Source: an uncultured virus (IMG/VR IMGVR_UViG_3300042467_002820) (lineage: Duplodnaviria; Heunggongvirae; Uroviricota; Caudoviricetes). From it: a DNA stretch of 64,000 nucleotides. The DNA is taken from IMG/VR virus record IMGVR_UViG_3300042467_002820. One strand, written 5' to 3'. The notes under the pieces were generated by a model. It saw only the letters and a program-made list of their open reading frames with translations, ran no database searches and was not told the origin of the DNA. This document shows positions 15,306-52,333 of the stretch, one piece after another; the first letter of the stretch is position 1, and every line of letters starts with the position of its first letter. The position numbers and the translations under genes were made by a program.

Positions 15306-15395
15306 TCATGGCATCGGAGCACAGCCGCCCCGCGGAGCCTAGGCCACAGGCCAGCTCCCCGCGGCTGCGCGCCGATACCGGCTCCGGCCGGTTGC

Positions 15396-15425
15396 TTGAC
15401 AGATCGGCACCGGGTGTGCCACACT
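15396..15425 (+). promoter_or_regulatory. Early promoter P3
   Basis: TTGACA-18-CACACT with extended TG. Confidence 0.75.
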
Positions 15426-15431
15426 TCTCTC

Positions 15432-15950: not shown

Positions 15951-15970
15951 ATCCACAAGCTGTGACCAGC

Positions 15971-19433: not shown

Positions 19434-19705
19434 ACGACCCCTCCTTCAACCTCGCCATGGCCGCCCGCGTCGGCGACTCTTGGTATACCCACCTCAGCGC
19501 CGTCGAAGCCGCCATGGCCGAGGACGACCGCATTGCCGACGCTCGCTGGCGCGCCGGCTGGACCGGCGACGAGGGCGGCTGGTACGCCCCCTGCGGCACC
19601 CACGAATCCGATTGGGAAGACGAGGGCTACCCACTCCCCGAGGACCCGGCATTCACCGAGTGGGCCTCCGCCTTCTACCACTACGACGCTGCGGACGCCG
19701 CGTAG
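19430..19705 (+). CDS. Hypothetical acidic protein
   Basis: Coupled ORF. Confidence 0.55.
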   Translation: MNDPSFNLAMAARVGDSWYTHLSAVEAAMAEDDRIADARWRAGWTGDEGGWYAPCGTHESDWEDEGYPLPEDPAFTEWASAFYHYDAADAA

Positions 19706-19763
19706 CGGCCGCGGCCCGCTGGAGCCGCACCCAATCCAGCCTTTACCCCACTACCCCACCACC

Positions 19764-20843
19764 ATGCGCGACTACGCCCCCAACACCGTCACCACCGCCT
19801 ACGCCGCCAACGGCCACGGCCCCCTGGTCTACGGCAAGTACCGCGACCACGGCTACGCCGTGAACCCGCTCACCGCCCAAGTCGGCACCTTCGTCCCCGA
19901 GCGCGCCTCCGCCTCCGAGGCCTTCGCCATCGCCGGCCTCAACTGGACCGCCGAGCGCCGCCCCGTCACCTTCATGGGCGCCGACGGCCCACTCACCTCC
20001 AACGACCACGTCGCCATCGTCCGCAGCGACACCGACGGCCTGCTCGGTATCCACGGCGCCGGCTACACCCCGGTGCAGAACAGCGCCCTGATCAACCTCC
20101 TCGACTACCTCCGCGAGGACCTCCACATCGAAAACGTCCTCTCCATCCGCGGCGGCCGCAAGGTGTTCGCCACGGCCACCATCGACACCGAGGACGAAGT
20201 CGTCCCTGGCGACCGCGTCCGCCGTTACCTCCACCTCTTCAACTCCCACGATGGGAGCAGTGGCTTCGGCGTCTTCTTCAGCGACGTCCGCCTCCGCTGC
20301 GCCAACCAGCTCGCCTACCTCACCGGCAAAGCCGTAGGCAACGCCATCCACGAGGGCGCCGGCCTCCGCCGCAAGCACACCTCCTCCGTCACGCAGTTCG
20401 CCGAGCAGCTGCCTCACCTGATCGATCTCGAGCGCCGCAGCTTCTCCCGCTCCATCGACCAACTCCGCGACCTGAGCAACGTGCAGCTCACCACCGAGCT
20501 CGCCCGCCGCGTCCTCGAGGCCACCTACGCCGACAAGCTCGCCACCCCCATCCGCGACAAAACCACCGGCGACAAGCGCCCCCGCACCATCGCGGACCTC
20601 AAAGAGGTCGCCACCATCCGCAACCACTACGCCGGTGACACCGGCCTGGGCATCCGCGACATCCCCGGCGTAGCCGGAACCCTCTACGGCCTCTTCAACG
20701 CCATCACCCAACACGCCACCCACGACACCGGCCGCGCCACCGACGCCACCGAGCGCGCCCGGGCCCGCCTCGAATCCCTCTGGGGCGGCACCTCCGCCAA
20801 GCGCATCGAGCGCGCCCGCGAAGCCTGCCTCGCCCTGGTGTGA
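19764..20843 (+). CDS. DUF932-family phage/plasmid protein
   Basis: AGLNW, R.DT...LG...GYTPVQN, L..NSHDGS, R..CANQL, HT, GTLYGLFNAIT. Confidence 0.8.
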   Translation: MRDYAPNTVTTAYAANGHGPLVYGKYRDHGYAVNPLTAQVGTFVPERASASEAFAIAGLNWTAERRPVTFMGADGPLTSNDHVAIVRSDTDGLLGIHGAGYTPVQNSALINLLDYLREDLHIENVLSIRGGRKVFATATIDTEDEVVPGDRVRRYLHLFNSHDGSSGFGVFFSDVRLRCANQLAYLTGKAVGNAIHEGAGLRRKHTSSVTQFAEQLPHLIDLERRSFSRSIDQLRDLSNVQLTTELARRVLEATYADKLATPIRDKTTGDKRPRTIADLKEVATIRNHYAGDTGLGIRDIPGVAGTLYGLFNAITQHATHDTGRATDATERARARLESLWGGTSAKRIERAREACLALV

Positions 20844-26829: not shown

Positions 26830-27321
26830 GTGGCCAATCGCGTTTACGGCTCTGACGGTCTCAACGAACGGCAACGCGTTGCTGCCACCCTGCTCGCCCG
26901 CGGCACCACCATCCGCGAGACCGCCCGCAAAATCGGCGTCAGCGAAAAGTCCGTATACACCTGGCGCCAGCGCCCCGCTGTGCAACAAGCCATCGCCCGG
27001 ATTCAGCAGGAACTTCTCTCCGAGACCGGTGGCATGAACATCAGCACCATCCCTGCTGCCATCAACGTCCTCGACAGCATCATCAACGACGAGGACGCCC
27101 GCGCCTCCGACCGCATCGCCGCCGCCCGCACCCTGATGAGTGGCGCCCAGGCCTATCAGGAACGCCGCATCCTCGAGCGCCAGATCGCCGACCTCGAGCG
27201 CCAACTGCTGCGCCTCACCGCCACCCACGACGCCGCCGCGGACGCCCCCTCCGCCGCTCCCGACTCCGAGGACGACGACCTCTTGCTCCCCTCCGCTGAC
27301 CCCGCGGACTTCGACAGCTGA
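26830..27321 (+). CDS. Terminase small subunit (HTH)
   Basis: N-terminal HTH; immediately upstream of TerL. Confidence 0.7.
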   Translation: MANRVYGSDGLNERQRVAATLLARGTTIRETARKIGVSEKSVYTWRQRPAVQQAIARIQQELLSETGGMNISTIPAAINVLDSIINDEDARASDRIAAARTLMSGAQAYQERRILERQIADLERQLLRLTATHDAAADAPSAAPDSEDDDLLLPSADPADFDS

Positions 27322-28724
27322 TGCCCTCCGTCTCCACCCTCCGCCGCCGCGTCGAGCGTCTCCAAACCGAGCTTGCCCGCCGCCAAGCCCGCGCCGCTCT
27401 CTACGAGGCCGGCACCGCCTCCTCCCTCCCCGCCGTCGGCGACTGGCCGTCGTTCGCACGACGCACCTGGATCCGCACCAGCGGCACCGTCGCCCCGTTC
27501 GACCCCTACGCCTACCAGATCAAGCTGATCCGCTCCATCAACGAGCACCCCAACACCCTCGTCAACAAGTCCCGCCAGACCGGTGTCTCCGAGACCGTCT
27601 GCAACTACCTCCTCTGCCGCGCCCTCACCGAGCGCGGCTTCGCCGCTGTTGTCTTCAGCAAAACCCAGCAGGACGCCTCCGAGCTCGGCCGACGCGTGCG
27701 CGCTATGGCCAACAGCCTCCGCGGCGAAACCGTCCGCTATCTGACCGACAGCAACACTCAGCTCGCCTTCGAAGGCCGCGGCACGCTGTACTTCCTCCCC
27801 GCCTCACCCCGCGCCGCCCGGGGCATCCCCAGCTGCTCCGTCCTCTTCATGGACGAGGCGGCCTTCCTCGAGGGCGCCGCCGAGATCTACCGCGGCGCCA
27901 TGCCGACGCTCTCCATGGTGGGCGACGCGGCCAAGGTCATCGTGGTCTCCACCCCAGACACCGAGCTCGACTGGTTCGGCCAGCTCTGGCACGCCGACGA
28001 AGGCGACTGGAACAAGGTGGCCATCCACTACTCCCAGCACCCGATCTACGGTGCTGACCCGGACTGGGCCCGCCGCACGCGCGAGTCGCGCCGGATGACG
28101 CTCGCGGCATGGAACTCCGAGTACGAGCTGCAGTTCGGTGCGACTGACACCCAGATTTACCCCAACGAGCTGATCAGCCGGGCTTCCCGCGGTCATTGGC
28201 GCGAGTGCGGTTCCATCAACCGCAGCTATGTCATCGGGATTGACCCCAACGGTGGGGGCAACGACTACTTCGTAGCAATGGTGCTGGACATAACTAAGAC
28301 ACCTTACGAAATTGTCGGTATGTACCGTGAAAACGGTAAGAGTACAGATTACAGCTTGAAGCATGTAAAAACCCTAATCGAAGACTACATGCCGCAACGC
28401 GTAATTGTAGAGAAACAAGCGATGGGCTCTGTCATCGCCGAAGCGCTACAGCACGTCCTACCAAACTACGCCATCGAAACGTTCAGCACGAGTCGCCCTT
28501 CCAAGAACGTCGCCACCGATCGCATCCTGTACCTGCTCGAGCGCGATGAGCTTGTGTTTCCGCCAGGCATCATCGCTGACGAGCTCCGCGCGTTTCAGCA
28601 ACAGGAAAGCGGCGCTCGCCAAGCCGTAAGTGGTGCCCATGACGACACTGTTATGGCACTTGCTTTTGCCTGTGCACTGATCCCGGAGACACCGGCTACT
28701 GCCAGCTTCTTCGACAACATCTAA
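27321..28724 (+). CDS. terL: Terminase large subunit
   Basis: KSRQTGVS (Walker A), LFMDEAAF, VSTP, IGIDP, HDDTVMALA. Confidence 0.92.
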   Translation: MPSVSTLRRRVERLQTELARRQARAALYEAGTASSLPAVGDWPSFARRTWIRTSGTVAPFDPYAYQIKLIRSINEHPNTLVNKSRQTGVSETVCNYLLCRALTERGFAAVVFSKTQQDASELGRRVRAMANSLRGETVRYLTDSNTQLAFEGRGTLYFLPASPRAARGIPSCSVLFMDEAAFLEGAAEIYRGAMPTLSMVGDAAKVIVVSTPDTELDWFGQLWHADEGDWNKVAIHYSQHPIYGADPDWARRTRESRRMTLAAWNSEYELQFGATDTQIYPNELISRASRGHWRECGSINRSYVIGIDPNGGGNDYFVAMVLDITKTPYEIVGMYRENGKSTDYSLKHVKTLIEDYMPQRVIVEKQAMGSVIAEALQHVLPNYAIETFSTSRPSKNVATDRILYLLERDELVFPPGIIADELRAFQQQESGARQAVSGAHDDTVMALAFACALIPETPATASFFDNI

Positions 28725-28782: not shown

Positions 28783-29112
28783 TCAGGCGGCTGCCCACCC
28801 CTGAGTCGCTTCACCTAACCAGAGCCGGATCGCGTCTTCTCTGTGAGAGGACCACCAGCTCTGCTGTCTGAACCATTGCTGCCAGTCCATCTCACTGCCT
28901 TTGGCCCGGTTGCATGGGCCGCAGCAGCAGACCAGATTCGTGCGGTCGCTGCGCCCCCCACGACACCGAGGGCGCACATGATCCAGCGTGTCCCCTGGCT
29001 GCCCGCAGTACGCACAAAGGGACCCCCAGCTGTTGAGGATCCCTTCGCGGAATTGCTGCTTGGCTTGCCGTTTGGTCAGGAGACGTGATCCATCAATCCG
29101 ATGGTCAACCAT
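28783..29112 (-). CDS. HNH endonuclease
   Basis: CAYCG...TLDHVRPRCRGG....NLVCCCGPCNRAK. Confidence 0.9.
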   Translation of the reverse strand: MVDHRIDGSRLLTKRQAKQQFREGILNSWGSLCAYCGQPGDTLDHVRPRCRGGRSDRTNLVCCCGPCNRAKGSEMDWQQWFRQQSWWSSHREDAIRLWLGEATQGWAAA

Positions 29113-29330: not shown

Positions 29331-31154
29331 ATGGCTTCCGCACCCTCAGACAATTTCCGGAATGATGGTGCATTAGTTAATGCGCTAACAGGTCTAGGTG
29401 TTCCTGCAAAAGATAAAACAACAGCCACAAGTGTCAGCTTCCAGACGCTGCTGACCGAAGCTGAACTCGAGTCTCTCTATACCAACGGCATCCCACGTCG
29501 CTACGTCGACGCCATTAGCGACGAGATCCTCCGCCATCAGCCCACCATCACCCTGGGTGGTGACGCCGCCTCCGACAACGCCGACCTCCTCACGAACTTC
29601 GACCAGTTCCTCCAGGCCAGCCAATTCCACTTCGCCCTCTCTGAGGTCATCAAGCTGCAGCGCCTCTATGGCGGCGCCGGCTTGGTGCTGCTGATCGACG
29701 ATGGCGCCCAGCCTGATGAACCTGTCGAGCTCAACCGCATTCGCGCCATCCGCGGCTTCATCCCACTCTCGCGCCATGAGTTGATCCCCGAGGACTTCTC
29801 CATCACCGACTACTCCCGTCCTTCGCACTACCGGATCACCACCAGTCAGCGCATCACCCCGGAACAGAACAGCGGCTACGTCAACATCCGCGTCCACCAC
29901 ACCCGCGTAGCACGCTTCGACGGCCTCTACCTTCCCTGGAACCTCCGCTCCCGCAACACCGGATGGGGCCAGTCCGTCCTGCAGCTCATCTGGAACGCCT
30001 TCAAGCGCTACGAGACCGCGATGTCCGGCCTCGAGTCGATGACATCCGATTCAGACGTCTTCGTTCACAAGATCCCCGGACTGTTCAACCGTATCGCCGC
30101 CGGCAACGAGTCCGACCTGCGCAAGCGCCTTGAAGCCAACAATCTCAGCCGCAGCGTCTACGGCGGGATGGTTGTGGACGTCGAAGAAGACATCAGCTTC
30201 ATCAACCGCGCGCTGAGCAACATCGCCACCGCGACCGACCCCTTCATCAAGGATCTGCAAGCCGCCACCGGCTGGCCCGCTTCCATCCTCATGGGTGACT
30301 CTCCTGGCGGTCTCGGTAAGGAAGGCCGCTTCGAAGAACGTGTCTGGTCGTCCCTCGTTGAGCAATGGCAAGAGGTCTACTGCCGCACCCCAATCACCGA
30401 GGTCTTCACCTACATCTTCGCCTCACGCGAAGGACCAACCCGCGGTCGCATCCCCGAGTCCTGGTCGGTGATGTTCCCCTCGGTCTTCACCCAGACCGAG
30501 AAAGAGAAGGCGGAGCTCCACCAGCTCAAAGCCGCTTCAGACGCTCAGTACATCCAGCTCGGCGTTCTGAACCCCCTGGAAGTCCGCGAGTCCCGCTTCG
30601 GCGGCACCACGTACTCACTTGACACAAAACTCAACGAAGCCGTCACCCAGCAGCTCATCGCCAGCACGGACGCCCAGTTCCAATCCCAGATGGCGGGCTA
30701 CGACGCTCAACTGCAGGCCGCCGCGCAACCCCCGGCGCTCCCCGAGGGCGAAGAAGCTCCAGCCGAAGGTGGCGCTGTTCTGCCCCCCGCCGAAGGCGAC
30801 CGCGGCGACGCCCTCTATGCCGAGGCCGAAGGCCTGCGCATCGTCATCACACACCGCCGCGGCGACGTCGTAGCCGGCCCACTCGTCGGACCCGACGGCC
30901 AGCGCATCGACAGCAGCGCTGCAGCCCCTGTGCTGATCCTAGGCCCACACCGCACGCGCACCCGCAAGCTCTACCGAGCTCGTTTCGCTCTCGACAGCGC
31001 CATCACCGATGGCCCTTACACCACCGGCTTCAATTCACTCCGCGCCGCCAAAGTTGCAGTCCAGCACTTCTTCCCCGGTCAGAATGTGGCAGGGCTTTCA
31101 CCAGTGCCCGACGCCGAGGCTGACGCCTTCCGCGCCTACAACGAGGGGTACTGA
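29331..31154 (+). CDS. Portal protein (DUF1073-type) with C-terminal extension
   Basis: L.NALTGLG, RLYGGA, GWGQSVL, A.GWP.SIL.G.SPGG; follows terminase. Confidence 0.85.
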   Translation: MASAPSDNFRNDGALVNALTGLGVPAKDKTTATSVSFQTLLTEAELESLYTNGIPRRYVDAISDEILRHQPTITLGGDAASDNADLLTNFDQFLQASQFHFALSEVIKLQRLYGGAGLVLLIDDGAQPDEPVELNRIRAIRGFIPLSRHELIPEDFSITDYSRPSHYRITTSQRITPEQNSGYVNIRVHHTRVARFDGLYLPWNLRSRNTGWGQSVLQLIWNAFKRYETAMSGLESMTSDSDVFVHKIPGLFNRIAAGNESDLRKRLEANNLSRSVYGGMVVDVEEDISFINRALSNIATATDPFIKDLQAATGWPASILMGDSPGGLGKEGRFEERVWSSLVEQWQEVYCRTPITEVFTYIFASREGPTRGRIPESWSVMFPSVFTQTEKEKAELHQLKAASDAQYIQLGVLNPLEVRESRFGGTTYSLDTKLNEAVTQQLIASTDAQFQSQMAGYDAQLQAAAQPPALPEGEEAPAEGGAVLPPAEGDRGDALYAEAEGLRIVITHRRGDVVAGPLVGPDGQRIDSSAAAPVLILGPHRTRTRKLYRARFALDSAITDGPYTTGFNSLRAAKVAVQHFFPGQNVAGLSPVPDAEADAFRAYNEGY

Positions 31155-31157: not shown

Positions 31158-34100
31158 GTGACGCCACGCAACACCACTCCCGAAGGATTCCGCACCGCGG
31201 CTTACCTGGCGACAAAAGCTCGCCTCGACGCCACAGCCCGCAGCCGCACCGGTAAAACAGCCCGCGGCGTCGATTGCAACCCACCCAACGTCAAATGTGG
31301 CGGCCGTTGCATCCCACCCAACTGGGATTGCCGCCTAGAGGGCAAGGGCCCTGACCCCCACCTGCGCGCCGTCCGCACCGACCCCGTCAGTGGCCTGGCC
31401 AACATCGAGCGCGGCGTCAAGCGCCTAGGCAAGGGCGTCCGCAAAGGCAGCTTCTCCGAGATCGAGGGCGGCAAGCGCGCCATTGTCCGCGGCATCGTCA
31501 AAGCCACCCCGGGCGACCTGCAGCGCAAGAAGGCCCTCCAAGCCCAGCTCGAGCGCCGCGCCGGCGGCATCGCCGCTGCTCTCGCTGTAGTCGGCTTCGG
31601 TCTGTTCACCCACAGCCAACTCAAGAAGGCCCCCTTCTACCGCGACGGCGTGGGCCGCCAGATCGACGACGCCGTTGCTGCCGGCATCAACCGCATCCTG
31701 GATGCCACCCCGGGCATCCGCGGAGCTCGCGCTGAACGCCGGGCAGCTGGTGCCGCCACCGCCGGGGCTGCGGCAGCCCGCGCCGCCGGCGAAGCCGCCA
31801 CGGGTCCGGAAGCACTCAGCGCCGCGCTACTCCGCACTCCCACCGAGCTCGAGCGCCGCGCCACCGACTACGGCAACGCCCGCGTGCTGCTCAATCGCGT
31901 CGGCGCTGTCGACGTTGATGCAGCCGGCCGCGGTGCCAACGCAGAAACCTGGCGGCAGCAGAGTCTCGAAGCCTTCTGGAGCACCAAGCGCACCAACGCT
32001 GCCGGCGCCGGTGATGGCAGTACCTTCTCCGAGCCCGCCACCCACGAGTATCTGTCGCGGCAGTTCGGCTTTCGCCTGGGCGCCAGTGCTTCAGATACCG
32101 ACGTCCGCCGCCAACTCACAAGCGCGCTGAACCGCGAGGCCGCCAGTCTGCAGGCCCTCGCCCGTCAGCAAGGCGTCAACATCAACGACGCCACTCAGCG
32201 CAGCCGTTTCCTTAACCGCCTCGTCGGCCCCAGCACTGCCAACTTCCCCGAGAACGTTCGCGAACGCGCTGTCGGCAACCTGAATCAGATCCTCGGTGCC
32301 GCTCCGCGCACCCGGGAAGCCGCAGTGAGCCGAACCGAGCTCGCTAACCGCATCTACCGCGAGACCCGAGACGGTTTCGACCAGTACTTCGGCCGCATCG
32401 CTGACGAAGTGCGCCAGACCCCGGGCGTCGCCATGCCCACCGAGCAGCGCCGCGCCGGCTACAGCGACTTGCTCAACAGCGCCCGCATCGGCCACTCCCG
32501 CTACCTAGCCCAGCGCCTTGCAAAGCCCGATAACGTCACTAGCCGCATCGGGCAAGGCCTCAGCGACGCCATCTCCAAGGAGTACTTCGCTCGCCAGGTA
32601 AACGGAAGCAGCACTTTTAGCCTTTCGGATCGGGAGACGCGCACCGCTGCCTCCGAGCTCGCCGGTCGCGACATCACCGGCCTAGCTGATGCCACCCGCT
32701 ACCTGCAGCAAAACGGCTTCGAGCGCCTCGTGCCCGTCCGTGCCGCAGCTCAACCCGCCACCGGAATCCGCGCTGCAGCTTCGGCTACCCCACCCCGAGT
32801 ACGCCGCAGCTCCCAAGCACAGATCACCGACCTCGCCCGCTCCCTCCGCGAAGCCGCCCAGCGCCGCGGCGAGACCATGAGCCTCGAGGCCTCTTACCGC
32901 GCCGCCCGCTCCGAAATCACCCGCCGCCAACGCGGTGACGCCCGCATCGACGCCGAGGGAAAGCCCTGCGGCGCCTCGCACATCCCTAAGGCACACGAGT
33001 GCCGGAAGAGCGGAGGCGCCGCTGCAGCCGCACAGCCCACCGAGAGCGGTAAGCCCTCGGCCCGCACCGGTGCAGCCCTAGCCGCCGCAGCCGCCGGCGC
33101 TGCTCTGACCGTCGGTGGCCTCCTCGCCTACAAGCAGCGCCAAACGCTGGTGCCGTCCCTCAGCCAGAAAGCCATCCGAGGCCTCTCGGCTCCACAGGTC
33201 AAAGAGGGCCTCGACAAGTTGCCTGAGAAGTTCCGCGATCCTGCGCGTCAGTTAGTCGGCGATGCCAAGCTCGCCGCCGCCCACATGGCGCTCCGTGCTC
33301 AGGGCTCGCAGATTCGTGCTGTCGACATCAAGAACAACTTCTCCACCTGGGTGACCCCCAACGGCACACACCTTTCGGTGGGGTCCATCGGCGACAGCCT
33401 TCTGACTTTTGGTGCAGAGCGCAAAGGCAACGTCAGCAAGTTCCCTCAGTACGGCCTCGGCTTCACGATCGACAGCAAGTACGACGCTGCCGGTGGCATG
33501 CCCAGCGCCCAGGCCAAGCAGCTGATCCGCACAACCAAGGCGATGTACCAATCGCAACTGGAGATGCTCCCCGAGAACGCTGTCCTCTTCGCAGTCCCCC
33601 ACAAGGACGATGGCAAAGGCGCCAAGCGTAAATCGATCTACGAAGGCATGGGCTTCCAGGCCATCACTGGGTTGAAGACCGACCGCCTGTGGGCGCTGAA
33701 GAACCAGGGCAAGTTCACCAAGATCCCGGAGGAGCAGATGGGCTACATGGCGGGGCTGATCCGGGGAGACCGTGCCGACGCAGCTACAGGCAAACCCTGC
33801 GGTGCTTCTCACATACCCAAAGCACACAACTGCAGCAAGACTGCTGGAGGCATAGCGACCGCAAAAAAGCCTAAAGAGGGTAGTAGCAATAAGCGCTTAG
33901 CCCTCGCCGCTGCCGCTGCCGGTGCTGCTGCCTTAGCGATCACCGCCCCCGCATGGACACCAGCTGCCCAACGCATACTCAATAACGCGAAGCCATTCGA
34001 TAAGAACAACCCCCCTCAGGGAGCCAAATACCTCACCGAGGGCGTTAGCGGCCGCACCTGGATCTCGCAGGACGATAAGTACGTAATTAAGACGCCTAAA

Positions 34101-34604
34101 GGTAAAGTAGATAAAGCAGCGTTCGCTAACGAGGTAAACACACAGAACGCCCTGTACGCTGCAGGTATCAGCGTTCCTAAAATCCACAACGCAGATCCGA
34201 CTAAAGGCGTAGTCATGATGGACTACCTAAAAGGCTACGACACTGTTAAATCGCTTACATCTGAGCAGCGCGGTAAAGCTGTACAAGGAGCTTTACGTGA
34301 AGTAGAAAAGATGCACCGTCTAGGCTATTCCCATGGTGATCTACACATGGGTAATGTCCTAACTAAAGGCAATGACGTAAAGCTAATCGACTTCGGTAAT
34401 GCCGGCGCTACAGCTAAAAACGGGTTATCTGATATTAACAGCTTACTAAGCGCAGCAAAAGACACGAATACGCCGCTATACACCGCAATGGTAAACCGCA
34501 AAAAAGCACTACAAACAAAGATAAGCAAAGGAGAAGCACTTACTCAAAAAGACTTGCTAGCGTTTCACGAAGCAGTACGTCAAGACTTACGGCGTTCCAC
34601 CTAA
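31158..34604 (+). CDS. Multidomain head-associated polyprotein (unknown domain, GNAT-like domain, protein kinase)
   Basis: Three RxD + KxCG..I...C tags; C-terminal EGVSG/VIK/NEV/HGDLHMGN/DFG kinase motifs. Confidence 0.75.
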   Translation: MTPRNTTPEGFRTAAYLATKARLDATARSRTGKTARGVDCNPPNVKCGGRCIPPNWDCRLEGKGPDPHLRAVRTDPVSGLANIERGVKRLGKGVRKGSFSEIEGGKRAIVRGIVKATPGDLQRKKALQAQLERRAGGIAAALAVVGFGLFTHSQLKKAPFYRDGVGRQIDDAVAAGINRILDATPGIRGARAERRAAGAATAGAAAARAAGEAATGPEALSAALLRTPTELERRATDYGNARVLLNRVGAVDVDAAGRGANAETWRQQSLEAFWSTKRTNAAGAGDGSTFSEPATHEYLSRQFGFRLGASASDTDVRRQLTSALNREAASLQALARQQGVNINDATQRSRFLNRLVGPSTANFPENVRERAVGNLNQILGAAPRTREAAVSRTELANRIYRETRDGFDQYFGRIADEVRQTPGVAMPTEQRRAGYSDLLNSARIGHSRYLAQRLAKPDNVTSRIGQGLSDAISKEYFARQVNGSSTFSLSDRETRTAASELAGRDITGLADATRYLQQNGFERLVPVRAAAQPATGIRAAASATPPRVRRSSQAQITDLARSLREAAQRRGETMSLEASYRAARSEITRRQRGDARIDAEGKPCGASHIPKAHECRKSGGAAAAAQPTESGKPSARTGAALAAAAAGAALTVGGLLAYKQRQTLVPSLSQKAIRGLSAPQVKEGLDKLPEKFRDPARQLVGDAKLAAAHMALRAQGSQIRAVDIKNNFSTWVTPNGTHLSVGSIGDSLLTFGAERKGNVSKFPQYGLGFTIDSKYDAAGGMPSAQAKQLIRTTKAMYQSQLEMLPENAVLFAVPHKDDGKGAKRKSIYEGMGFQAITGLKTDRLWALKNQGKFTKIPEEQMGYMAGLIRGDRADAATGKPCGASHIPKAHNCSKTAGGIATAKKPKEGSSNKRLALAAAAAGAAALAITAPAWTPAAQRILNNAKPFDKNNPPQGAKYLTEGVSGRTWISQDDKYVIKTPKGKVDKAAFANEVNTQNALYAAGISVPKIHNADPTKGVVMMDYLKGYDTVKSLTSEQRGKAVQGALREVEKMHRLGYSHGDLHMGNVLTKGNDVKLIDFGNAGATAKNGLSDINSLLSAAKDTNTPLYTAMVNRKKALQTKISKGEALTQKDLLAFHEAVRQDLRRST

Positions 34605-35467
34605 TGCAACTCCTTGAGCGCTACAACGCCGCCCTGCGTCGCTCCGAGGACGTCTCCATCGCCCAGCTCAATCGCATCCTCGACAGCAGCTTCAATCGCC
34701 TCCTCCGCCGCACCCGCATTCAGCTGCGCAGCGGCACGCCAGCCGCCGACCGCAACGTCGTTCTCCTCCAAGAGTTCCGCCAGCTGATCCCCGCCTTCCG
34801 CCCGGACCGCACTGACGGCTACGACCGTGTCCTACGTAGCCTCCTGCGCAGCTCCGAACGCAGTGGCACCGGCGTCGCCCGAGAACTTCTGCGCGACATC
34901 GCCCCCGGCCGCCGGCGCATCGACGTTTCCATCCCCATCGAGGCCACCGTGGCCGCTGCAGCTCAGGCCCGTGGCTACCTCCGCCGCCACGGTGAAGCTT
35001 TTGCCACCACCGCCACCGAGCTCGTCGCCCAGGGCATCGCCGAAGGCCGCCCCACCGACGCCATCACCAACGACCTGCGCCTGCGCCTCGGTGTTGTGAA
35101 ATCGAGGGCGGACGTGATCACCCGCACGGAATCACTTCGTGCCTACAACGCCGCCAGCAATCAGTACTACGCAGCGAACGGCATCGATCTCGTGATGTGG
35201 TACGCCACCAGCGACGATCGAACCTGCCCCGTCTGCAATGCCCGGGCGGGCCGCATCTACAAGCGTGCTAGTACAAACGCACCGGCGCACCCGCGCTGCC
35301 GCTGCTACCTAGCACCCTGGGACCCCGAGATTGCCGCCATCGACCCCGAGTACGCATCCCTACCCCGCCGCCACCGCGAAGAAGTCTCCCGGGTAGCGAC
35401 CGTCGGCCCTGCTGACCTCAACAAAGCCGCAGTATTCGAGCAGTTCGCCCCTCAGCCATTCGATTGA
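34604..35467 (+). CDS. MuF / SPP1 gp7-like minor head protein
   Basis: RA.VI.RTE..RAYN, D.RTCP.C, PAHPRCRC. Confidence 0.9.
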   Translation: MQLLERYNAALRRSEDVSIAQLNRILDSSFNRLLRRTRIQLRSGTPAADRNVVLLQEFRQLIPAFRPDRTDGYDRVLRSLLRSSERSGTGVARELLRDIAPGRRRIDVSIPIEATVAAAAQARGYLRRHGEAFATTATELVAQGIAEGRPTDAITNDLRLRLGVVKSRADVITRTESLRAYNAASNQYYAANGIDLVMWYATSDDRTCPVCNARAGRIYKRASTNAPAHPRCRCYLAPWDPEIAAIDPEYASLPRRHREEVSRVATVGPADLNKAAVFEQFAPQPFD

Positions 35468-35707
35468 TCAGCCCAGAAAGCGCCGCTTGGCTTTGTCGAG
35501 AGCGACATTTGCACCAGTACCTGCCACACCAGATGGAAAGAACAGCGCAGCTGTAGTCATCCACCTATCGAGGCACGCGTTAGCGCTACCTCTGTTCAAT
35601 AGGTTAGGTAGCTCACACGAACCTACAAAGAAAGTAGCAAATACAAGCTGTCCAATCAGCAACCCAGAAGTTGCACCACTCCCAGCGACCAGTCGAAGCA
35701 AGTTCAT
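35468..35707 (-). CDS. Small membrane protein, antisense to head operon
   Basis: Two hydrophobic segments; fills intergenic gap exactly. Confidence 0.5.
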   Translation of the reverse strand: MNLLRLVAGSGATSGLLIGQLVFATFFVGSCELPNLLNRGSANACLDRWMTTAALFFPSGVAGTGANVALDKAKRRFLG

Positions 35708-35794
35708 GGTTTAGACCCACAGTTGCTTCAGCCTATCGGCCCCTATAGCACAGAGCAGCTACGCTGTGTGAAGCAATACTCGGGGCTCTTAGCC

Positions 35795-36520
35795 ATGCCC
35801 GCCACCGCCCGCCGCTCCAAATCCGAGGCCTACGAGAAGGGCATCCGCGAAGGCCGCGCCATGGCCGCCCGCTCCCGCAACATCGAGCCCGAGGAGGGCG
35901 AAGAGGAAGAAGAGGAGATGGACATGGCCATGCAGCCTGGCTATTCACGCAAGCGCAGCGCTAAGGGCGCCAAGGCGACCAAGGCGCCCATGGATGGCGC
36001 CTACGGCAAGAAGCCCATGGACGCCGAGTGCGGTTGCAGCAGCAAAAAGGGTGGCAAATGTGATGGCAACTGCGGCTCGATGCGCAAGCGCGGCGACTCG
36101 CTCAGCCCCCTGGAGTACCTCGATGCCTGCGAGCTCGGCATTCAGGACCGCAGCACCACCTACATCCGCGCCCGCCTCGACGCCGCTGAGCGTCTGGACC
36201 TGAAGTGTGGCAAAGGCTCCATCTCCGAGGGCGAAAAGTGCACCAAAGGTGCGGCGCAGAAGGTAAACCCTGTTCAAAAAGTGGTGCGAGCCTATAAGCG
36301 CAATCGTGCGAACAGCCGAGCAGCACAGGCTGAGATTAAAGCTATGAATCCTAAGTGGAAGAAACAGTACGAAAAAGCGAAAGCTAAAGGAGCTTCACGT
36401 CAGGAGCTGACTAATCTTTCCATTAAACAAGCAGGGGAAATAGACAAAATCCTACGAAAAAACACCTCTAATGTATGGGCGGATGGCTTCTCCTCCAGCT
36501 CCAGCACCTACGACGTCTGA
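35795..36520 (+). CDS. Head-region modular protein with RLDLKCG tag
   Basis: Start MPATARR; RLDLKCGKGSISEGEKCTKG; ends VWADGF. Confidence 0.7.
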   Translation: MPATARRSKSEAYEKGIREGRAMAARSRNIEPEEGEEEEEEMDMAMQPGYSRKRSAKGAKATKAPMDGAYGKKPMDAECGCSSKKGGKCDGNCGSMRKRGDSLSPLEYLDACELGIQDRSTTYIRARLDAAERLDLKCGKGSISEGEKCTKGAAQKVNPVQKVVRAYKRNRANSRAAQAEIKAMNPKWKKQYEKAKAKGASRQELTNLSIKQAGEIDKILRKNTSNVWADGFSSSSSTYDV

Positions 36521-36523
36521 GCC

Positions 36524-37267
36524 ATGACCCTCACTCCCGGCACCCTCCGTCTCGACCTCAAATGTGGCCGCGGATCCATCTCCGAGGGCGAAAAGTGCAC
36601 CAAAGGTGCCGCGCAGAAGGTACAGCCACAGCAGTACAAGCGCGGCAACGTCACCCCTAACACCAAAGCCGCCCAGCGTCTCCGCACCGCTGCAAACGTC
36701 GCAGCGGCCGCCGGTGCCCTCGCGCCTCTCGCTGGTCTGGCCGCAGGCGGCGGTTCAGGCCTGGTCGCCGGTTTTGGCGCGGCCAGCACTGCGTTCAAAG
36801 CAGCCGGCGCCCTCAACACCTTTGCCAAAGCACAAGAAACCAGCAGTGCAGCAGGCAAAGCTCGCCTGAAGAAGGAAGCCACCTTCCGCGCAATCAGCGC
36901 AGGCGGCAGCGCCATCGGCACCGCCGTAGGCGCCGCCTCCATGGCCCGGACAGCACGTCGCTCCAACCAGCGCGCCTCCTTGGAGCGCCTCTATCGCGGC
37001 CCCTCCGCCCGGCGCCCACCCGGTCTCGACTCCGAGGCAGCTGACGCAGAGTCCCGCATGGACCCCCGCGGCACCAAAGTCGCTGCCATGGAAGCTGAGC
37101 TTGCCAAGCAAGCCGCAGCCCGCGGCCTTAAGGGCGCCCGCGCCGAGGCCTACATCTACGGCACCCTCAACAAGATGGGCTACAAGCAGGGCAGCAAGAC
37201 CACCCGCAAGGGCGCTGCCAAAGCCAAGCGCAGCGACTCCATCTGGGCCGCCGGCTTCGACGCATGA
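36524..37267 (+). CDS. Head-region modular protein with RLDLKCG tag and hydrophobic segment
   Basis: MTLTPGTLRLDLKCGRGSISEGEKCTKG; ends RSDSIWAAGFDA. Confidence 0.7.
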   Translation: MTLTPGTLRLDLKCGRGSISEGEKCTKGAAQKVQPQQYKRGNVTPNTKAAQRLRTAANVAAAAGALAPLAGLAAGGGSGLVAGFGAASTAFKAAGALNTFAKAQETSSAAGKARLKKEATFRAISAGGSAIGTAVGAASMARTARRSNQRASLERLYRGPSARRPPGLDSEAADAESRMDPRGTKVAAMEAELAKQAAARGLKGARAEAYIYGTLNKMGYKQGSKTTRKGAAKAKRSDSIWAAGFDA

Positions 37268-38001
37268 ACCTCACCCCCGCGACGCTGCGCCTCCGCTCTG
37301 ACGCTCGCGGGGTGGTTTTCGTCGACGCCAAACTGCACGCCGCCGTCAAAGCCGAGGCCAGACGCAAGTTCAAGATCTATCCGAGCGCCTACGCCAACGC
37401 TTGGATGGTCCGCGAGTACAAAAAGCGCGGCGGCACCTTCCGCAACGACGCCCTCGACAAGTGGTTCAAGGAGAAATGGGTGCGCATGAGCGGCACCGGC
37501 CGCATCCTCGGCCCTTGCGGCGACCGCACCGAGGGCGAAGGCAAGCCCAAATGCCTCCCGGCCGCCAAAGCCATGGCGCTCTCCCCCGCTGAGCGCCGCC
37601 GCCTCGTCGCCCGCAAGCGCCGCGAAGACCCACGCAAGGAGCGCACCGGCGCCCCCGTCATGGTGAGCTCCAAAACCGACGTCTGGGCAGCCGGCTTTGA
37701 TGCCGAGGACGGCAAGAAGTACACCAAAAAGGTCCGCGACCCCGAGACCGGCCGCACCCGCACCGTCCGCTACGGCGCAAAGGGCTACAAAATCGCCCCG
37801 GGCACCGACAAGGGCGACCGCTACTGCGCTCGCAGCTTCGGTGACATGAAATCCGAGGGCTACAACTGCGCCGGCGCCGAGCGCAACACCCCGCTCTGCC
37901 TCTCCCGTGCTAAATGGCGCTGCTCCGGTAAGACCAGCCGCCGCGACGAGGGCCTTACGCCGGCAACCCTTCGGCACCCCTCTATAGCCCTCGTAGCCTG
38001 A
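37264..38001 (+). CDS. Basic head-region modular protein
   Basis: MNLTPATLRLRSD; YPSAYANAW; KWFKEKW; KTDVWAAGFDA. Confidence 0.7.
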   Translation: MNLTPATLRLRSDARGVVFVDAKLHAAVKAEARRKFKIYPSAYANAWMVREYKKRGGTFRNDALDKWFKEKWVRMSGTGRILGPCGDRTEGEGKPKCLPAAKAMALSPAERRRLVARKRREDPRKERTGAPVMVSSKTDVWAAGFDAEDGKKYTKKVRDPETGRTRTVRYGAKGYKIAPGTDKGDRYCARSFGDMKSEGYNCAGAERNTPLCLSRAKWRCSGKTSRRDEGLTPATLRHPSIALVA

Positions 38002-38022: not shown

Positions 38023-39288
38023 GTGGGCCAACGCATTGTCAACAACGATCGCTACGAACTCGAGTACGTTCGCGGCGACGTTGAATACCCAGTACCCGTA
38101 CTCGCCAATACCGGCACAAGCGGTGATGCCTTCGGCCGCCTCCGTACCAGCTCTCCTTTCACAGTCTTCGATAGCCAGCATCGCTATCAAGAAAACGACA
38201 AGTGGGACACTGCACTAAACGGTGGCGCCTCTAAGACATACGTCGCTAACGAAAGCTCCATCAATCTCACCGTTCCCACCACATCCGGCGCCTACGTCTA
38301 TCGCGAAACCAAGCGCGTCTTCCCCTACCAGCCCGGCAAATCGCTGCTGGTGATGACGTCCTTCGCCTTCGCCACCGCCCAGGCCAATCTGCGCCAACGC
38401 ATCGGCTACTTCAGCGCCCAGAACGGCAGCTACCTCGAGAGCGACGGCACCACCACCTACTTCGTCCGCCGCAGCTACGTCACCGGCAGCGTGGTCAACA
38501 CCCGTATCGCTCAAGCCGACTGGAACGGTGACAAGCTCGACGGCACAGGCCTGTCCGGCCGCACCCTAGACCTCGCCAAAACCCAGATCTTCTGGATCGA
38601 CATCGAGTGGCTTGGCGTCGGCGACGTCCGCTGCGGCTTCGTCGTCGATGGCCGCATGGTGATCGCCCACACATTCCACGGCGACAACGTCAACACGACC
38701 AGCTACATGACCACCGCCGTTCTCCCCCTCCGCCAGGAGATCGAGAACACAGGCACCACCGCCGCTTCCGCAACCGCCAAGCAGATCTGCGCCACCGTCG
38801 CCTCCGAGGGCGGATACGAAGGCTTCAGCCGCCGCTACAACCTCTCCACCGGATCCACCGCAGTCACGCTCGCGACCGCTGGCACCAGCTACCCAATCAT
38901 GGCGATTCGCCTCAACAGCACGCGCCTGGACAGCGTGATCGTCCCCTCCAATGTCAGCGCCGCTGTTGAACAGACCACCAACAACAAGCTCGACATCGTC
39001 CAGTACCAGGTACTCCTGAACCCAACCATCACAGGCGGTACTTGGTCCACGCACTTCAACAACAACGTCCAGTACAACACCACAATCAGCAGCTTCACCG
39101 GTGGCACCGAGATCGCCGGCGGCTACCTCACGAGCTCGTCGTCCCTCGACCTAGGCAGCATCACGGACTTCAACTTCCAACTCGGCCGCACCATCTCCGG
39201 CACCAGCGACGTCCTCCTCATTGCAGCTGTTCCCACCAACGACGCCGCCAAGCTGTTCCTCGATCTGGCCTGGTTCGAGATCGTCTGA
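38023..39288 (+). CDS. Virion structural protein (beta-rich)
   Basis: DAFGRLRTS.P.T.FDS, YQPGKS, IEWLGVG.VR.GF; Thr/Ser-rich. Confidence 0.65.
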   Translation: MGQRIVNNDRYELEYVRGDVEYPVPVLANTGTSGDAFGRLRTSSPFTVFDSQHRYQENDKWDTALNGGASKTYVANESSINLTVPTTSGAYVYRETKRVFPYQPGKSLLVMTSFAFATAQANLRQRIGYFSAQNGSYLESDGTTTYFVRRSYVTGSVVNTRIAQADWNGDKLDGTGLSGRTLDLAKTQIFWIDIEWLGVGDVRCGFVVDGRMVIAHTFHGDNVNTTSYMTTAVLPLRQEIENTGTTAASATAKQICATVASEGGYEGFSRRYNLSTGSTAVTLATAGTSYPIMAIRLNSTRLDSVIVPSNVSAAVEQTTNNKLDIVQYQVLLNPTITGGTWSTHFNNNVQYNTTISSFTGGTEIAGGYLTSSSSLDLGSITDFNFQLGRTISGTSDVLLIAAVPTNDAAKLFLDLAWFEIV

Positions 39289-39566: not shown

Positions 39567-40844
39567 ATGGAAACATCAGTATCCAGGTACGACTTCGCTC
39601 CCATAACTGGCAGCGAGACCACCCCCGAGGGCTACCTCCGGGTCTGGTGCCGTGCTGCCCGCTCGGGCACACAGCTCTACCGCCGTGCTGATGGCTCCCA
39701 AGTCCGCGAATACCGCCCTCCGGAGGAGGTCAGTAACCCGGACTCCCTCTCCACGTTCGGCATGAAGCCCGCAACGTGGGGTCACCCACCTGTTCTTCTC
39801 GACTCCGCCAACACCAAACAGTTCCAGGTCGGCTACTCCGGTAGCCAGGTCCGGTACAACGACGGTTTTGTCGAAGTCGCGCTCGTCGTCACCGACGCCG
39901 ACGCCATCGAGAAGATCAAGCGCAAGGATGCCACCGAGGTATCCGCCGGCTACAAGGTCGACTTCGACCCAACCCCCGGGATCACCCCCGAGGGCGAAGA
40001 GTACGCCGGCGTCCAGCGCAACATCCGGGTGAACCACATCGCCATTGTCCCCCGCGGCCGGGCTGGCCCGGAGGTACGACTCTTGCTCGACCGAATGGAT
40101 GCAGCCGATGCTGTAGCCGCCTTCCCCGAGCACGAAATGGCGCCCCAGTCCAGTTCAACTGCATCTCCCGTTATGGCAACCGTCAAACTCGACGGCCTGG
40201 AGATCGATCTGCCCGCAGAAGCAGCCAGCGCGGTCCAGTCCTACTCCCGGGACATGGGGCGCCAACTGCAAGCACTCACCACCGAGCGCGACGAGCTTGC
40301 CACCAAGCTCGATTCTCTGCAGGCCGACTTCGACGCTCTGGCCTACGACAAAGAGGCCGCTGAAGGTCGCGCCGACGCTCTCGAGGAGCAGCTCGCTGCT
40401 TCCGGTGAAGCCCGCATCGATACCGCCGAGCTCGACCAGCTCGTCGCCGAGCGCCTCGCCACCCTGCAGCGACTCGCCCCCGCGTTCACCGAGGACTTCA
40501 AGTTCGACGGCATCGACGACGCCTCCCTGTACGTCCAGGCCTTCGAGAACCTCACCGGCTCCGCCCCGCGCGAAGACGCCGAACCCGCCTACATCCAAGG
40601 CGTGGTTGAAGGCATCCTCGCCGCCCGCGCTGACGCCGAAGGCGACGAAGACGCCGACTCCGAGGACGACTCCGCCGAAGGCGACGAGGAGACCAAAGAG
40701 GACGCCGATTCCGACCGCGCCGACAGCACCACCGCCCTGCGTGACGCGCTGAAAGGTGCCGGCCAATCCACCGCCAACCCCATCGCTGCCTACCGCAGCC
40801 GCACGGTTGACGCCTGGAAACGTCCCCTCACCGCCACCAAGTAA
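39567..40844 (+). CDS. DUF2213 head maturation protease/scaffold
   Basis: TPEGYL, EYRPPEEV, EVSAGY, QRNIRVNHIAIV..GRAG; acidic coiled-coil C-terminus. Confidence 0.85.
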   Translation: METSVSRYDFAPITGSETTPEGYLRVWCRAARSGTQLYRRADGSQVREYRPPEEVSNPDSLSTFGMKPATWGHPPVLLDSANTKQFQVGYSGSQVRYNDGFVEVALVVTDADAIEKIKRKDATEVSAGYKVDFDPTPGITPEGEEYAGVQRNIRVNHIAIVPRGRAGPEVRLLLDRMDAADAVAAFPEHEMAPQSSSTASPVMATVKLDGLEIDLPAEAASAVQSYSRDMGRQLQALTTERDELATKLDSLQADFDALAYDKEAAEGRADALEEQLAASGEARIDTAELDQLVAERLATLQRLAPAFTEDFKFDGIDDASLYVQAFENLTGSAPREDAEPAYIQGVVEGILAARADAEGDEDADSEDDSAEGDEETKEDADSDRADSTTALRDALKGAGQSTANPIAAYRSRTVDAWKRPLTATK

Positions 40845-41477: not shown

Positions 41478-41493
41478 TCCCGGAGCCCCTCCC

Positions 41494-42411
41494 ATGACCA
41501 CCGAAATCCGTAACGACTCGGTCGGCCTCTTTCTTGCCCGCGAGCTGGAATCCATCCTGGCCCGCGCGTTTGAAGTCGAGTACGCCGACATCAAGTACAG
41601 CACTGTCATCCCCGTCTCCTCCGAGGTCGGCAACGGCGCTGATTCCTTCACCTATCGCGTCTTCGACAAGCAAGGCTCGATGAAGGTGATCGGCGACAAA
41701 GCCCAGGACCTGCCCCGCGCTGACGTGCTCCGCAAGGAAGTCACCCACCCGGTTCGCAGCCTCGGCGCTTCCTTCGCTTACACCGTCCAGGAAACCCGTG
41801 CCGCCGCCATGGTGCCCGGCATGAACCTGGAGCAGCGCCGCGCCAACGCCGTGCGCCGCGCCTACGAGGAGAAAGTGCAGGAGATCGCCTACTTCGGCGA
41901 TGCCCCCTCCGGCATGAAGGGCTTCTTCAACAACAACCAGGTGGACAAGCTGGTGCCGGACCATTGGTTCGACACCGCGGACATCACCACCGACGAGATG
42001 CTGCAACTGCTCAACGAGCCCGCCACGCGGATCGTGCAGAACAGCAACATGAAGGAGATGCCCAACACGATGCTGGTGCCCTACAACGTGTACCGCATCA
42101 TCTCCACCACTCCGCGCAGCACCACCTCCGACACCACGGTGATGGAGTTCTTCCTGCGCACCAACCCCATGATCACCGCCATCGAGCCCATCAACGAGCT
42201 CGAGGCCTCCAAGTCCGGCGGCGTCCTCTCGAAGGACCGCGTGATCTGCTACGACCGCAGCCCCGACAAGCTGCAGCTGCACATCCCGCAGCCCCTCGAG
42301 TTCTTCCCGCCCGTGCGCACCGAGCTCGAGTTCTCCGTCGCCGCTCATGCTCGCATCGGCGGCCTCGCGCTCTACTACCCCAAGAGCGCCATCGTGCTCG
42401 AGAAGGCCTGA
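41494..42411 (+). CDS. Major capsid protein (DUF2184 family)
   Basis: FLARELE.I, DLPRADV, IAYFGD...G.FN, GG...YYP. Confidence 0.9.
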   Translation: MTTEIRNDSVGLFLARELESILARAFEVEYADIKYSTVIPVSSEVGNGADSFTYRVFDKQGSMKVIGDKAQDLPRADVLRKEVTHPVRSLGASFAYTVQETRAAAMVPGMNLEQRRANAVRRAYEEKVQEIAYFGDAPSGMKGFFNNNQVDKLVPDHWFDTADITTDEMLQLLNEPATRIVQNSNMKEMPNTMLVPYNVYRIISTTPRSTTSDTTVMEFFLRTNPMITAIEPINELEASKSGGVLSKDRVICYDRSPDKLQLHIPQPLEFFPPVRTELEFSVAAHARIGGLALYYPKSAIVLEKA

Positions 42412-51996: not shown

Positions 51997-52333
51997 CCAT
52001 CTAATCGGCAGGCGCTACACATTCGGCAAAGACGACTGCATCCATCTTGTTGTCGAAGTGCTGCAGGAATTAGGCAAAAATCCACCTGCAGTAGCGGCTC
52101 ACTGGTACGAGCTGACACCGCGCCAGTTAGTCAGTGAAATCAAGGCGTACTGTATGCCCATTGATCGTCCCGAGTACGATGGGGACATCGTGTTACTTGC
52201 GGCGGCGCCACCTACGTTCGGAGTCCTATGGCAGCGTGGCATCCTGTTCATCAATCCATTGACTTTGACCGTCGACTGGAAACCGCCGGCAAACCTTACG
52301 ATCCGCCGCTCCTACCGTATGAAATCGCGCTGA
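51989..52333 (+). CDS. NlpC/P60-like tail protein
   Basis: LIGRRY.FG..DCIHLV. Confidence 0.65.
   Translation: MCSHLIGRRYTFGKDDCIHLVVEVLQELGKNPPAVAAHWYELTPRQLVSEIKAYCMPIDRPEYDGDIVLLAAAPPTFGVLWQRGILFINPLTLTVDWKPPANLTIRRSYRMKSR

Follow-up and report, generated by a model that had tools for sequence, protein, structure and literature searches.

Phages inject proteins along with their DNA. We know of no sequence rule for recognising such injected cargo outside T4 and a few other models. Whether a rule of this kind can be read from a head gene cluster is the question raised by a 64,000-nucleotide stretch of DNA from an uncultured virus of the Caudoviricetes (IMG/VR record IMGVR_UViG_3300042467_002820), called the window below. 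At positions 31158 to 38001, between the portal and head-maturation protease genes, it holds four open reading frames (ORFs), A1148, B265, C247 and D245, arranged around a gene for a MuF-like minor head protein. A first-pass annotation read these ORFs as effector modules that carry a cysteine tag for packaging, are cut at R-x-D and are injected with the DNA. We conclude, with moderate confidence in the whole explanation including cutting and ejection, that they encode virion-internal ‘polyvalent’ cargo proteins of a cyanosiphophage related to Synechococcus phage S-CBS4. The window is of phage origin: 57% of its sampled words recur in an IMG/VR record whose A1148 is 100% identical.

A cysteine-loop header precedes variable domains

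The modules are built of [R/K]-x-D, 2-12 residues further on a 12-residue loop (K/P)-C-G-x3-I-x5-C (the tag), a basic linker, usually an Ala/Gly-rich hydrophobic stretch, and a variable enzyme. Six-frame search of the whole window with C-G-x3-I-x3-6-C gave five matches between 31296 and 36598, all on the + strand, as are the parts of the locus from portal to capsid gene described below. These are the five tags that the first-pass annotation had listed, at the same places, and the window has no others. They sit in three of the four ORFs around MuF. A1148 (31158..34604) carries tag 1, a four-Cys form C-x6-C-G-G-R-C-I-P-P-N-W-D-C (31275..31331, with its C-G match at 31296-31331), tag 2, C-G-A-S-H-I-P-K-A-H-E-C (32967..33002), and tag 3, C-G-A-S-H-I-P-K-A-H-N-C (33798..33833). 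Tag 4, C-G-K-G-S-I-S-E-G-E-K-C (36206..36241), lies in B265 (35723..36520) and tag 5, C-G-R-G-S-I-S-E-G-E-K-C (36563..36598), in C247 (36524..37267). Motif search of the ORFs found no Cys tag in D245 or MuF. The grammar was proposed for all four ORFs; D245 lacks its Cys tag.

Four loop types recur. T1, C-x6-C-G-G-R-C-I-P-P-N-W-D-C, is found at the N-terminus of the large protein. T2 is G-K-P-C-G-x-S-H-I-P-K-x-H-x-C, T3 is D-L-K-C-G-x-G-x-I-S-x-G-E-K-C-T-K-G, and T4 is a second four-Cys form with the spacing of T1. All 94 diverse tags aligned in a profile (A3) share the loop residues C, G, I and C. Of 538 tags, 147 combine a Cys at loop position +4 with a second one 5-10 residues upstream, and none has either of the two by itself. 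Because these cysteines are gained and lost only in pairs, the loop is most likely a disulfide- or metal-stapled cap. His is found at both +4 and +9 in 119 of the 538; the remaining tags have two Cys and no consistent further ligands. The pairing suggests that the cysteines are bonded two by two. A disulfide would fit all loop types, and a four-ligand metal site T1 and T4 and possibly T2. Pfam, PHROGs and NCBIfam hold no model for the tag, in agreement with the earlier view that it belongs to no described family, and literature searches for a described Cys-loop header gave nothing relevant. Likeness to the Bowman-Birk inhibitor loop and self-cleavage at Cys were set aside; loop size and context do not fit.

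The Ala-rich hydrophobic helix said to follow the tag ‘often’ is seen as a hydrophobic stretch after three of the five tags (Kyte-Doolittle mean 1.55-1.87). It is located at 33072..33128 after tag 2 (mean over 19 residues 1.87) and at 33897..33953 after tag 3 (1.83). After tag 1 it is weak and distant (0.89), and a Kyte-Doolittle scan found none after tag 4. Tags of related loci were scored with a 19-residue segment of mean at least 1.2 within 90 residues after the tag, together with 2000 control segments. Such a segment follows 83 of 85 T2, 36 of 67 T3 and none of 41 T1 tags, compared to 10% of controls.

Tagged proteins are present in purified virions of phage CL131

Four tag queries against 50,697 deposited phage records gave a single match, Aphanizomenon phage vB_AphaS-CL131. 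Its complete 112.8-kb genome contains seven in-frame tags, all in gp044, gp047 and gp048. The grammar is R-x-D, a four-Cys loop C-x5-C-G-D-x-C-I-P-K-x3-C, a hydrophobic segment and an enzyme domain. The hydrophobic segments are clear and are followed by domains with G-H-S-A-G-G that appear hydrolase-like; motif reading suggests a JAB-like payload in addition. All three proteins are listed in the liquid chromatography-tandem mass spectrometry table of CsCl-purified CL131 virions, in which 23 proteins were found (PMC6293099). ORF_048 scores 454, with 54.6% coverage and 105 peptides, and coverage is 38% for ORF_047 and 46% for ORF_044 (PMC6293099). The published search was restricted to peptides with tryptic ends on both sides (PMC6293099). 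In that source the three are annotated as hypothetical proteins only (PMC6293099). CL131 also has a DUF2213 protease. Its gp012 ‘portal’ (L077 8800-12981) is 1393 residues long, has no Cys tags, and by motif reading may contain a MuF-like region near residues 1040-1105; the virion data include it with 59 peptides (PMC6293099).

These data bear on the possibility that tagged proteins are non-structural, for example membrane proteins of the infected cell, and merely happen to sit in the head cluster. The slot itself tolerates non-structural genes, since between portal and protease S-CBS4 holds glycosyltransferase and methyltransferase genes. The presence of three tagged proteins among those found in purified CL131 virions (PMC6293099) argues against this, as do a tag fused to the head protease in the viral contig G002 and the domains defined on polyvalent proteins in tag-bearing relatives, both described below. 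We consider this explanation very improbable.

The tag is widespread in head or other virion gene clusters of phages

A profile of the five window tags retrieved 811 proteins at E ≤0.01 among 8000 candidates scored, and a strict tag is present once or more in each of the 120 proteins listed from it. Searching with the conserved first module of A1148 yielded 72 related viral loci. Twenty-eight sources hold both portal and protease genes, and the portal-to-protease gene order is kept in all of them. On their + strand between those genes lie 126 of 131 strict matches; the other five are chance matches on the minus strand, four of them with internal stop codons. The arrays in these sources contain 3-8 tags and span 4.8-11.4 kb. 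With the A3 profile, 666 clusters were found at E ≤0.001, 154 of them at ≤1e-10, in 1.84 billion representatives. A tblastn search with A1148 and a megablast search with the head region found no match in the 50,697 phage records, and a related-locus search with the protein P0173 found nothing.

The tag is hardly present in cellular genomes. Two degenerate DNA patterns searched in 596 Gb gave 2 and 14 stretches, representing 15 loci; the tag hidden Markov model confirmed five of them, one weakly, all on contigs of metagenome-assembled genomes (MAGs). In 401 genomes of the phylum of one such MAG, the A3 profile matched the centre genome itself only, a weak test with a profile that includes phage-type flanks. 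A 43-kb contig of a Thermosynechococcus MAG (L161) encodes a 908-residue protein with four tags and A-R-L-D-K-K ahead of them (minus strand, 5535-8258), and two further tags are found on another contig of that MAG. L161 may represent a prophage or a phage that was binned wrongly, and would hint at a host among the cyanobacteria.

Tags are also found outside this lineage. G002, a 105-kb viral contig estimated as 77% complete, contains 13 tags in five ORFs flanking the capsid gene. One ORF joins a tag to a head-maturation protease (phrog_328, E 6e-21), and another, a polyvalent protein of 2212 residues, has a tag before each domain. The fusion to the protease speaks for a link with the prohead interior. 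A protein of the phrog_1221 family, which has no assigned function, is encoded two ORFs upstream of the tagged genes (L148 7395-8369, E 4e-56), and the window encodes one at 19533-20843 (E 7e-43). Thus the tag is confined to head or virion gene clusters, although the narrower expectation of the first-pass annotation, that a profile search would find it only in portal-MuF-DUF2213 loci, fails in CL131 and G002.

Candidate processing sites bound the modules

As had been claimed, R-x-D is found upstream of each of the five window tags, at a distance of 2-25 residues. The sites are R-L-D ahead of tag 1 (31221..31229), R-G-D-A-R-I-D-A ahead of tag 2 (32931..32951), R-G-D-R-A-D ahead of tag 3 (33762..33779) and R-L-D-A-A-E-R-L-D ahead of tag 4 (36173..36199); C247 opens with the leader M-T-L-T-P-G-T-L-R-L-D before tag 5. 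The stretch ahead of tag 2 has two candidate protease sites, and its R and D are invariant in the module-2 alignment. In the 94 diverse tags, conservation of the upstream R and of the upstream D is 90% or more. R-x-D occurs within 20 residues upstream in 359 of 508 distinct tags, compared to 10% of random 20-mers from the same proteins.

Peptides at the module ends are conserved as well. The proposed (V/I)WAxGF endings were found, starting at 36476, 37244 and 37684: a C-terminal W-A-D-G-F in B265 (36476..36490), a C-terminal W-A-A-G-F after R-S-D-S-I in C247 (37244..37258), and a third copy inside D245. Among 84 distinct + strand contexts of (W/Y/F)AxGF, some of which occur by chance, [RK]xD ends at most three residues upstream in 53 and a stop codon follows within 25 residues in 62. 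Many module ORFs end in [R/K]-[R/K]-D-S-(I/V)-(W/Y)-A-x-G-F, and the next ORF opens with M-x-L-T-P-x-x-L-R-x-D-L-K-C-G; in 23 of 253 tag-bearing proteins the first Cys is at residue 14. The same junction occurs inside fused ORFs and across stop codons.

The window’s protease-scaffold protein contains eight [RK]xD[AS] sites compared to 0.9 expected, a number reached in none of 1000 shuffles. A1148 contains five (1.8 expected; 31 of 1000 shuffles reach five), and none is found in the window’s terminase, tape-measure protein or DNA polymerase. At the protease-scaffold boundary, R-M-D-A is found in close relatives only, whereas L-x-L-D is invariant in the four proteins aligned. The scaffold C-terminus, AWKRPLTATK, was considered as a WAxGF-like peptide and shows no resemblance. 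In the T1-like coliphage TLS, the mature capsid N-terminus is ASDMGIW (PMC11447400). In the TLS sequence record this peptide directly follows K-N-D, and the window’s capsid protein has I-R-N-D-S at the corresponding N-terminal place. The conservation of R-x-D ahead of the tags, the K-N-D site in TLS and the enrichment in the scaffold make cleavage plausible. R-x-D is therefore a plausible cut site of the DUF2213 protease, with one sequenced site in a distant relative behind it.

The terminal peptides offer another account of addressing. The loop may be a structural staple, a small disulfide or zinc cap that shields the free module N-terminus, with addressing left to the L-T-P-x-x-L-R leader, the (W/Y)AxGF peptide or linkage to the portal. 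The strict pairing of cysteines fits a staple, and the loop would persist on the mature module if R-x-D were cut. Conservation extends to the terminal peptides, which R-x-D delimits; D245 lacks a loop and yet has the leader and WAAGF; and the portal C-terminus bears a similar Y-T-T-G-F. However, the loop is the most widely conserved element, being kept in G002 although that contig has no leader, R-x-D or WAxGF, a pattern hard to account for by a cap alone, and in G002 it is fused to the head protease, which must enter the prohead. We regard the staple as possible, though short of likely.

Payloads are diverse enzymes

A1148 combines a conserved 530-residue module 1, a GNAT-like domain and a kinase core, and thus by motif and model evidence appears to have the two or more disparate activities in one polypeptide that mark polyvalent proteins. 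Sixty-two loci contain module 1 and 34 contain module 2; a search of the ESM Atlas with module 1 gave no usable match. The first-pass annotation had named a GNAT-like domain and a complete protein kinase. The former has a fold match behind it. The domain in module 2 (33303..33722; AlphaFold2 pLDDT 75-92) matches GNATs with VIA Z up to 8.6, middling by that tool’s scale (NatA/Naa10 and others; rmsd 3.0 over 109-112 residues), and nearly all top rows are GNATs. Foldseek gave a best E of 6.6e-3 and nothing at 0.001 or better, and Pfam gave no match even at E 10. The kinase in module 3 (34029..34466) matches Pfam RIO1 above cut-off (36.8 bits; cut-off 22), as well as APH and ABC1, and HGDLHMGN and DFG motifs are readable in its translation. 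It is a minimal Bud32/RIO-like core rather than the full kinase described earlier. Its matches to the NCBIfam Bud32 equivalog models are all below cut-off, so it is a relative and not an orthologue.

Across 72 sources, 253 tag-headed payloads fall into 26 families; in the kinase family the heading tag can be T2 or T3. The tag is thus followed by diverse domains and not by one constant domain, as the first-pass annotation had expected of a profile search. Among 81 distinct tag-bearing proteins, 31 matched Pfam at E ≤1e-5, including one (P0227) without a true tag; its 14 weak partial tag matches are false positives. The matches comprise LRAT/NlpC, kinases, DnaJ, ART-PolyVal, InPase, poly(A)-polymerase-like with HD, NUDIX, histidine phosphatase, lipase-like and ATLF domains, and relatives also include lipase/Tle3-like and Kdo/WaaP-like kinase matches. 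Portal, MuF and protease families are absent from the Pfam matches of the 81 proteins. ART-PolyVal and InPase were found in the tag-bearing relatives P0130, P0193 and P0241; Pfam detected neither these nor similar class-typical domains in the window’s own ORFs. Relatives of InPase and ART-PolyVal in 67 other loci carry the tag in none, indicating that the tag marks only some lineages of polyvalent proteins.

Several of these payloads may act on lipids or the envelope, judging by their family matches, and the header of loop, basic linker and helix could serve as a membrane anchor for them, after ejection or in the infected cell, rather than as a capsid signal. Lipase/Tle3-like, LRAT/NlpC and Kdo/WaaP-like kinase payloads would suit such a role, as would the hydrophobic segment after nearly all T2 tags and the CL131 segments that precede hydrolase-like domains. 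The hydrophobic stretch is missing, however, after 31 of 67 T3 and all 13 G002 tags. Its transmembrane character comes from a hydropathy scale, and AlphaFold2 did not model the stretch after tag 2 as a helix (pLDDT <50). Anchoring is also compatible with packaging, and both can hold. We consider an anchor in place of a capsid signal rather doubtful.

A cassette is present or absent between phages with closely similar flanks

Comparison with a related locus (L004) located the scar of a 1414-nt indel with 6-nt microhomology at 37958..37963 of the window. The flanks are 93-96% identical. In L004 the extra DNA (13848-15261) codes for a second kinase behind a T2 tag and a hydrophobic stretch. Presence or absence of this tag-helix-kinase cassette between the two phages, together with the 26 payload families, bears out the proposal that modules are swappable. 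Frame fusion at the scar creates the D245 C-terminal sequence L-T-P-A-T-L-R-H-P-S-I-A-L-V-A. The three LTPxTLR copies ascribed earlier to three modules are real, but belong to two proteins, at residue 3 of C247 and residues 3 and 231 of D245, and the third lies on the scar.

Tags 4 and 5 are located within an 80-nt direct repeat of 88% identity. Since the copies differ mostly at synonymous sites, selection acts on the protein. This argues against the idea that the junction is kept as a DNA-level recombination linker for cassette shuffling, with a functionless peptide. The repeat itself, the shuffling of payloads among phages and the occurrence of one junction both within ORFs and across stop codons would be expected of such a linker. 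The one mapped indel, however, breaks at microhomology outside the conserved junction, and the motif is kept in G002 and in CL131 (coding GC near 37-41%; PMC6293099), phages of unrelated DNA. A linker of this kind is most unlikely.

Comparison with known systems

The system is of the polyvalent or internal-cargo kind. Polyvalent proteins of phages and conjugative elements (Iyer et al., 2017) likewise combine unrelated enzymes in one polypeptide, including kinase, GNAT, ART, peptidase-like and nucleotide enzymes; their genes lie with MuF, portal and head genes, and packing and injection are predicted for them (PMC5512222). Small ORFs nearby that resemble spare cassettes are a further shared feature (PMC5512222). 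The A1148 gene is likewise encoded with virion head genes (MuF, portal), and tag-bearing relatives match Pfam models from the polyvalent set (ART-PolyVal, InPase). Together with the CL131 virion table (PMC6293099), these domains agree with the first-pass assignment of the locus to virion cargo. The main text of PMC5512222 does not contain the words ‘cysteine’, ‘transmembrane’ or ‘linker’, and the header is not described there under those words.

In T4, the internal proteins and Alt carry an N-terminal capsid targeting sequence that suffices to load foreign proteins and is removed by the gp21 prohead protease. The header arrangement appears to work most like this system. Both would place a short conserved N-terminal peptide on unrelated cargo beside a head-protease site, and stand-alone ORFs of the present lineage begin with M-x-L-T-P-x-x-L-R-x-D. 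Unlike T4, the window’s protease is of the DUF2213/phrog_530 rather than the gp21 type, and the putative site is after Asp instead of Glu. The loop lies downstream of that site and would be retained on cutting, not removed. In addition, the header recurs inside long proteins.

Phage TLS (PMC11447400) shares protease (gp33, DUF2213), cement and capsid (gp36) families with the window, and its K-N-D matches [R/K]-x-D. Its annotation table contains a MuF-like gene, but unlike the window no cargo array. MuF polymorphic toxins and SPP1 gp7 represent a further arrangement, in which a variable toxin or enzyme is associated with a MuF head protein (Jamet et al., 2017; PMC5576092). In SPP1, gp7 is bound to the portal and occurs in capsids (PMC5576092). 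The window does not have a MuF fused to a variable toxin domain: its MuF is a stand-alone protein of 287 residues (Pfam match at residues 139-236), and the variable domains are on neighbouring Cys-loop ORFs. The CL131 proteins share the window’s header grammar, and their genes lie beside the tape-measure gene instead of the portal.

Proposed mechanism and evidence against it

In the explanation we favour, the cargo proteins would be built into the prohead. The DUF2213 protease would then cut after the Asp of R-x-D, parting the modules, and would likewise remove the L-T-P-x-x-L-R-x-D leader at the N-terminus and the WAxGF peptide at the C-terminus. The Cys loop would remain at the new N-terminus of each module. 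At infection, the modules would exit with the DNA and act in or at the host membrane. It is possible, judging from sequence, that the loop is the prohead-targeting signal that the first-pass annotation proposed; the LTPxxLR leader or the WAxGF tail could serve for addressing just as well. A role of the loop as a packaging or retention handle is a tentative proposal. More speculatively, the loop may be a portable address label, by which different lineages load or hold arbitrary proteins in the particle, paired with the protease site of each lineage (R-x-D with DUF2213, an Asn-containing motif with a Mu-I-like protease).

Several findings weigh against this explanation, in whole or in part. In CL131 the tagged genes immediately precede the tape-measure gene and lie about 30 kb away from the portal, which makes the tail lumen as possible a location as the head. 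The CL131 mass spectrometry data speak to presence in the virion only, and in CL131 rather than the window phage. Neither MuF nor DUF2213 was found in the assembled 77% of G002, where the same DUF2213 search was positive in a control (G001). None of the 13 G002 tags has R-x-D or the hydrophobic stretch, which indicates that the three header elements are separable. S-CBS4 has the same portal, protease and capsid genes, yet no tags. Enrichment of R-x-D in the window’s own cargo ORFs is weak, and Asp is followed by different residues (L, I, F, A, S, R), where the single sequenced site has A or S. In AlphaFold2 models the tag has pLDDT <50 inside module 2, and 63 with no secondary structure when modelled alone.

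Gene order and neighbouring genes

Along the window, the order is portal, A1148, MuF, B265, C247, D245, phrog_1645, DUF2213 protease-scaffold, cement protein and capsid protein, with the gene for a 1597-residue tape-measure protein further on. Upstream of the portal are the small and large terminase genes (26830-28724), followed by a minus-strand HNH-type ORF (28783-29112) whose Cys/His pattern was read by eye and is a putative assignment.

The portal protein (607 residues, 29331..31154; PF06381, E 2.5e-55; phrog_146) has a lineage-specific C-terminal extension, seen on comparison of C-termini and absent from the S-CBS4 portal. The extension (30650-31154) contains R-G-D-A and D-G-P-Y-T-T-G-F, which resembles the module-end motif, and A1148 begins with T-T-P-E-G-F-R, similar to the L-T-P-x-x-L-R leader. 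The module chain may begin with the portal. MuF is encoded at 34604..35467 (PF04233, E 1.8e-14; phrog_115).

B265 contains an acidic run, a small Cys-rich stretch, tag 4 and the C-terminal WADGF; a 241-residue form with its start at 35795 is also on record (P0072). Its N-terminal half (35723-36170) has a Glu run followed by the Cys-rich C-G-C-x7-C-x3-C and R-G-D-S. The stretch S-L-S-P-L-E-Y-L-D-A-C-E-L-G-I-Q-D-R-S is kept in relatives and matched no family. C247 consists of its leader, tag 5, a Gly/Ala-rich stretch and the C-terminal R-S-D-S-I-W-A-A-G-F. Pfam (also at E 10), PHROGs and NCBIfam gave no family for B265 or C247. D245 (37264..38001) has the leader M-N-L-T-P-A-T-L-R, DUF5872 (PF19197, E 3.8e-11), the internal K-T-D-V-W-A-A-G-F and a second small domain. 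This domain (37684-38001), after the internal WAAGF, contains Cys and R-Y-G-A-K-G-Y-x-I-A-P-G-T-x-K-G-D-R-Y-C-A-R-S, and is kept in many loci. Its resemblance to a stretch of the 1393-residue portal-MuF fusion of CL131 reached only E 0.13 and was set aside.

The array is closed by a virion structural protein (phrog_1645, E 9.2e-116; 38023..39288). The DUF2213 protease fused to scaffold follows at 39567..40844 (PF09979, E 3e-41; phrog_530), and the major capsid protein at 41491..42411 (PF09950), whose N-terminus M-T-T-E-I-R-N-D-S aligns with the cut-site region of coliphage TLS. S-CBS4, a Synechococcus siphophage, is the nearest cultured phage; its portal is 38% and its capsid protein 56% identical to those of the window. 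The left part of the window encodes an endolysin, a DNA polymerase, a primase-like protein and an RNA polymerase sigma factor. GC content is 0.48-0.55 at both ends (1-16000 and 52000-64000) compared to 0.58-0.69 in the head region.

Implications

The header provides a sequence rule for cargo of this kind. Searching with a profile of the loop and its flanks brings up at least 666 protein clusters, the loop is absent from domain libraries, and in the only cultured phage found with the loop, the loop marks virion proteins. The large DUF2213 protease family is barely studied, and the R-x-D rule, if true, would be its first cleavage specificity. The paired cysteines suggest a disulfide or metal staple that would be stable in seawater and released in the reducing cytoplasm of the host.

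If the loop or the neighbouring peptides direct loading, injected effectors such as kinases, acetyltransferases, ADP-ribosyltransferases and lipases could be catalogued in metagenomes, and capsids could be loaded with proteins of choice by means of the header. If the loop is indeed an address label, a 12-residue stapled loop with a cut site would be a general, programmable means of packing and releasing enzymes, and hundreds of undescribed injected effectors would become recognisable from sequence.

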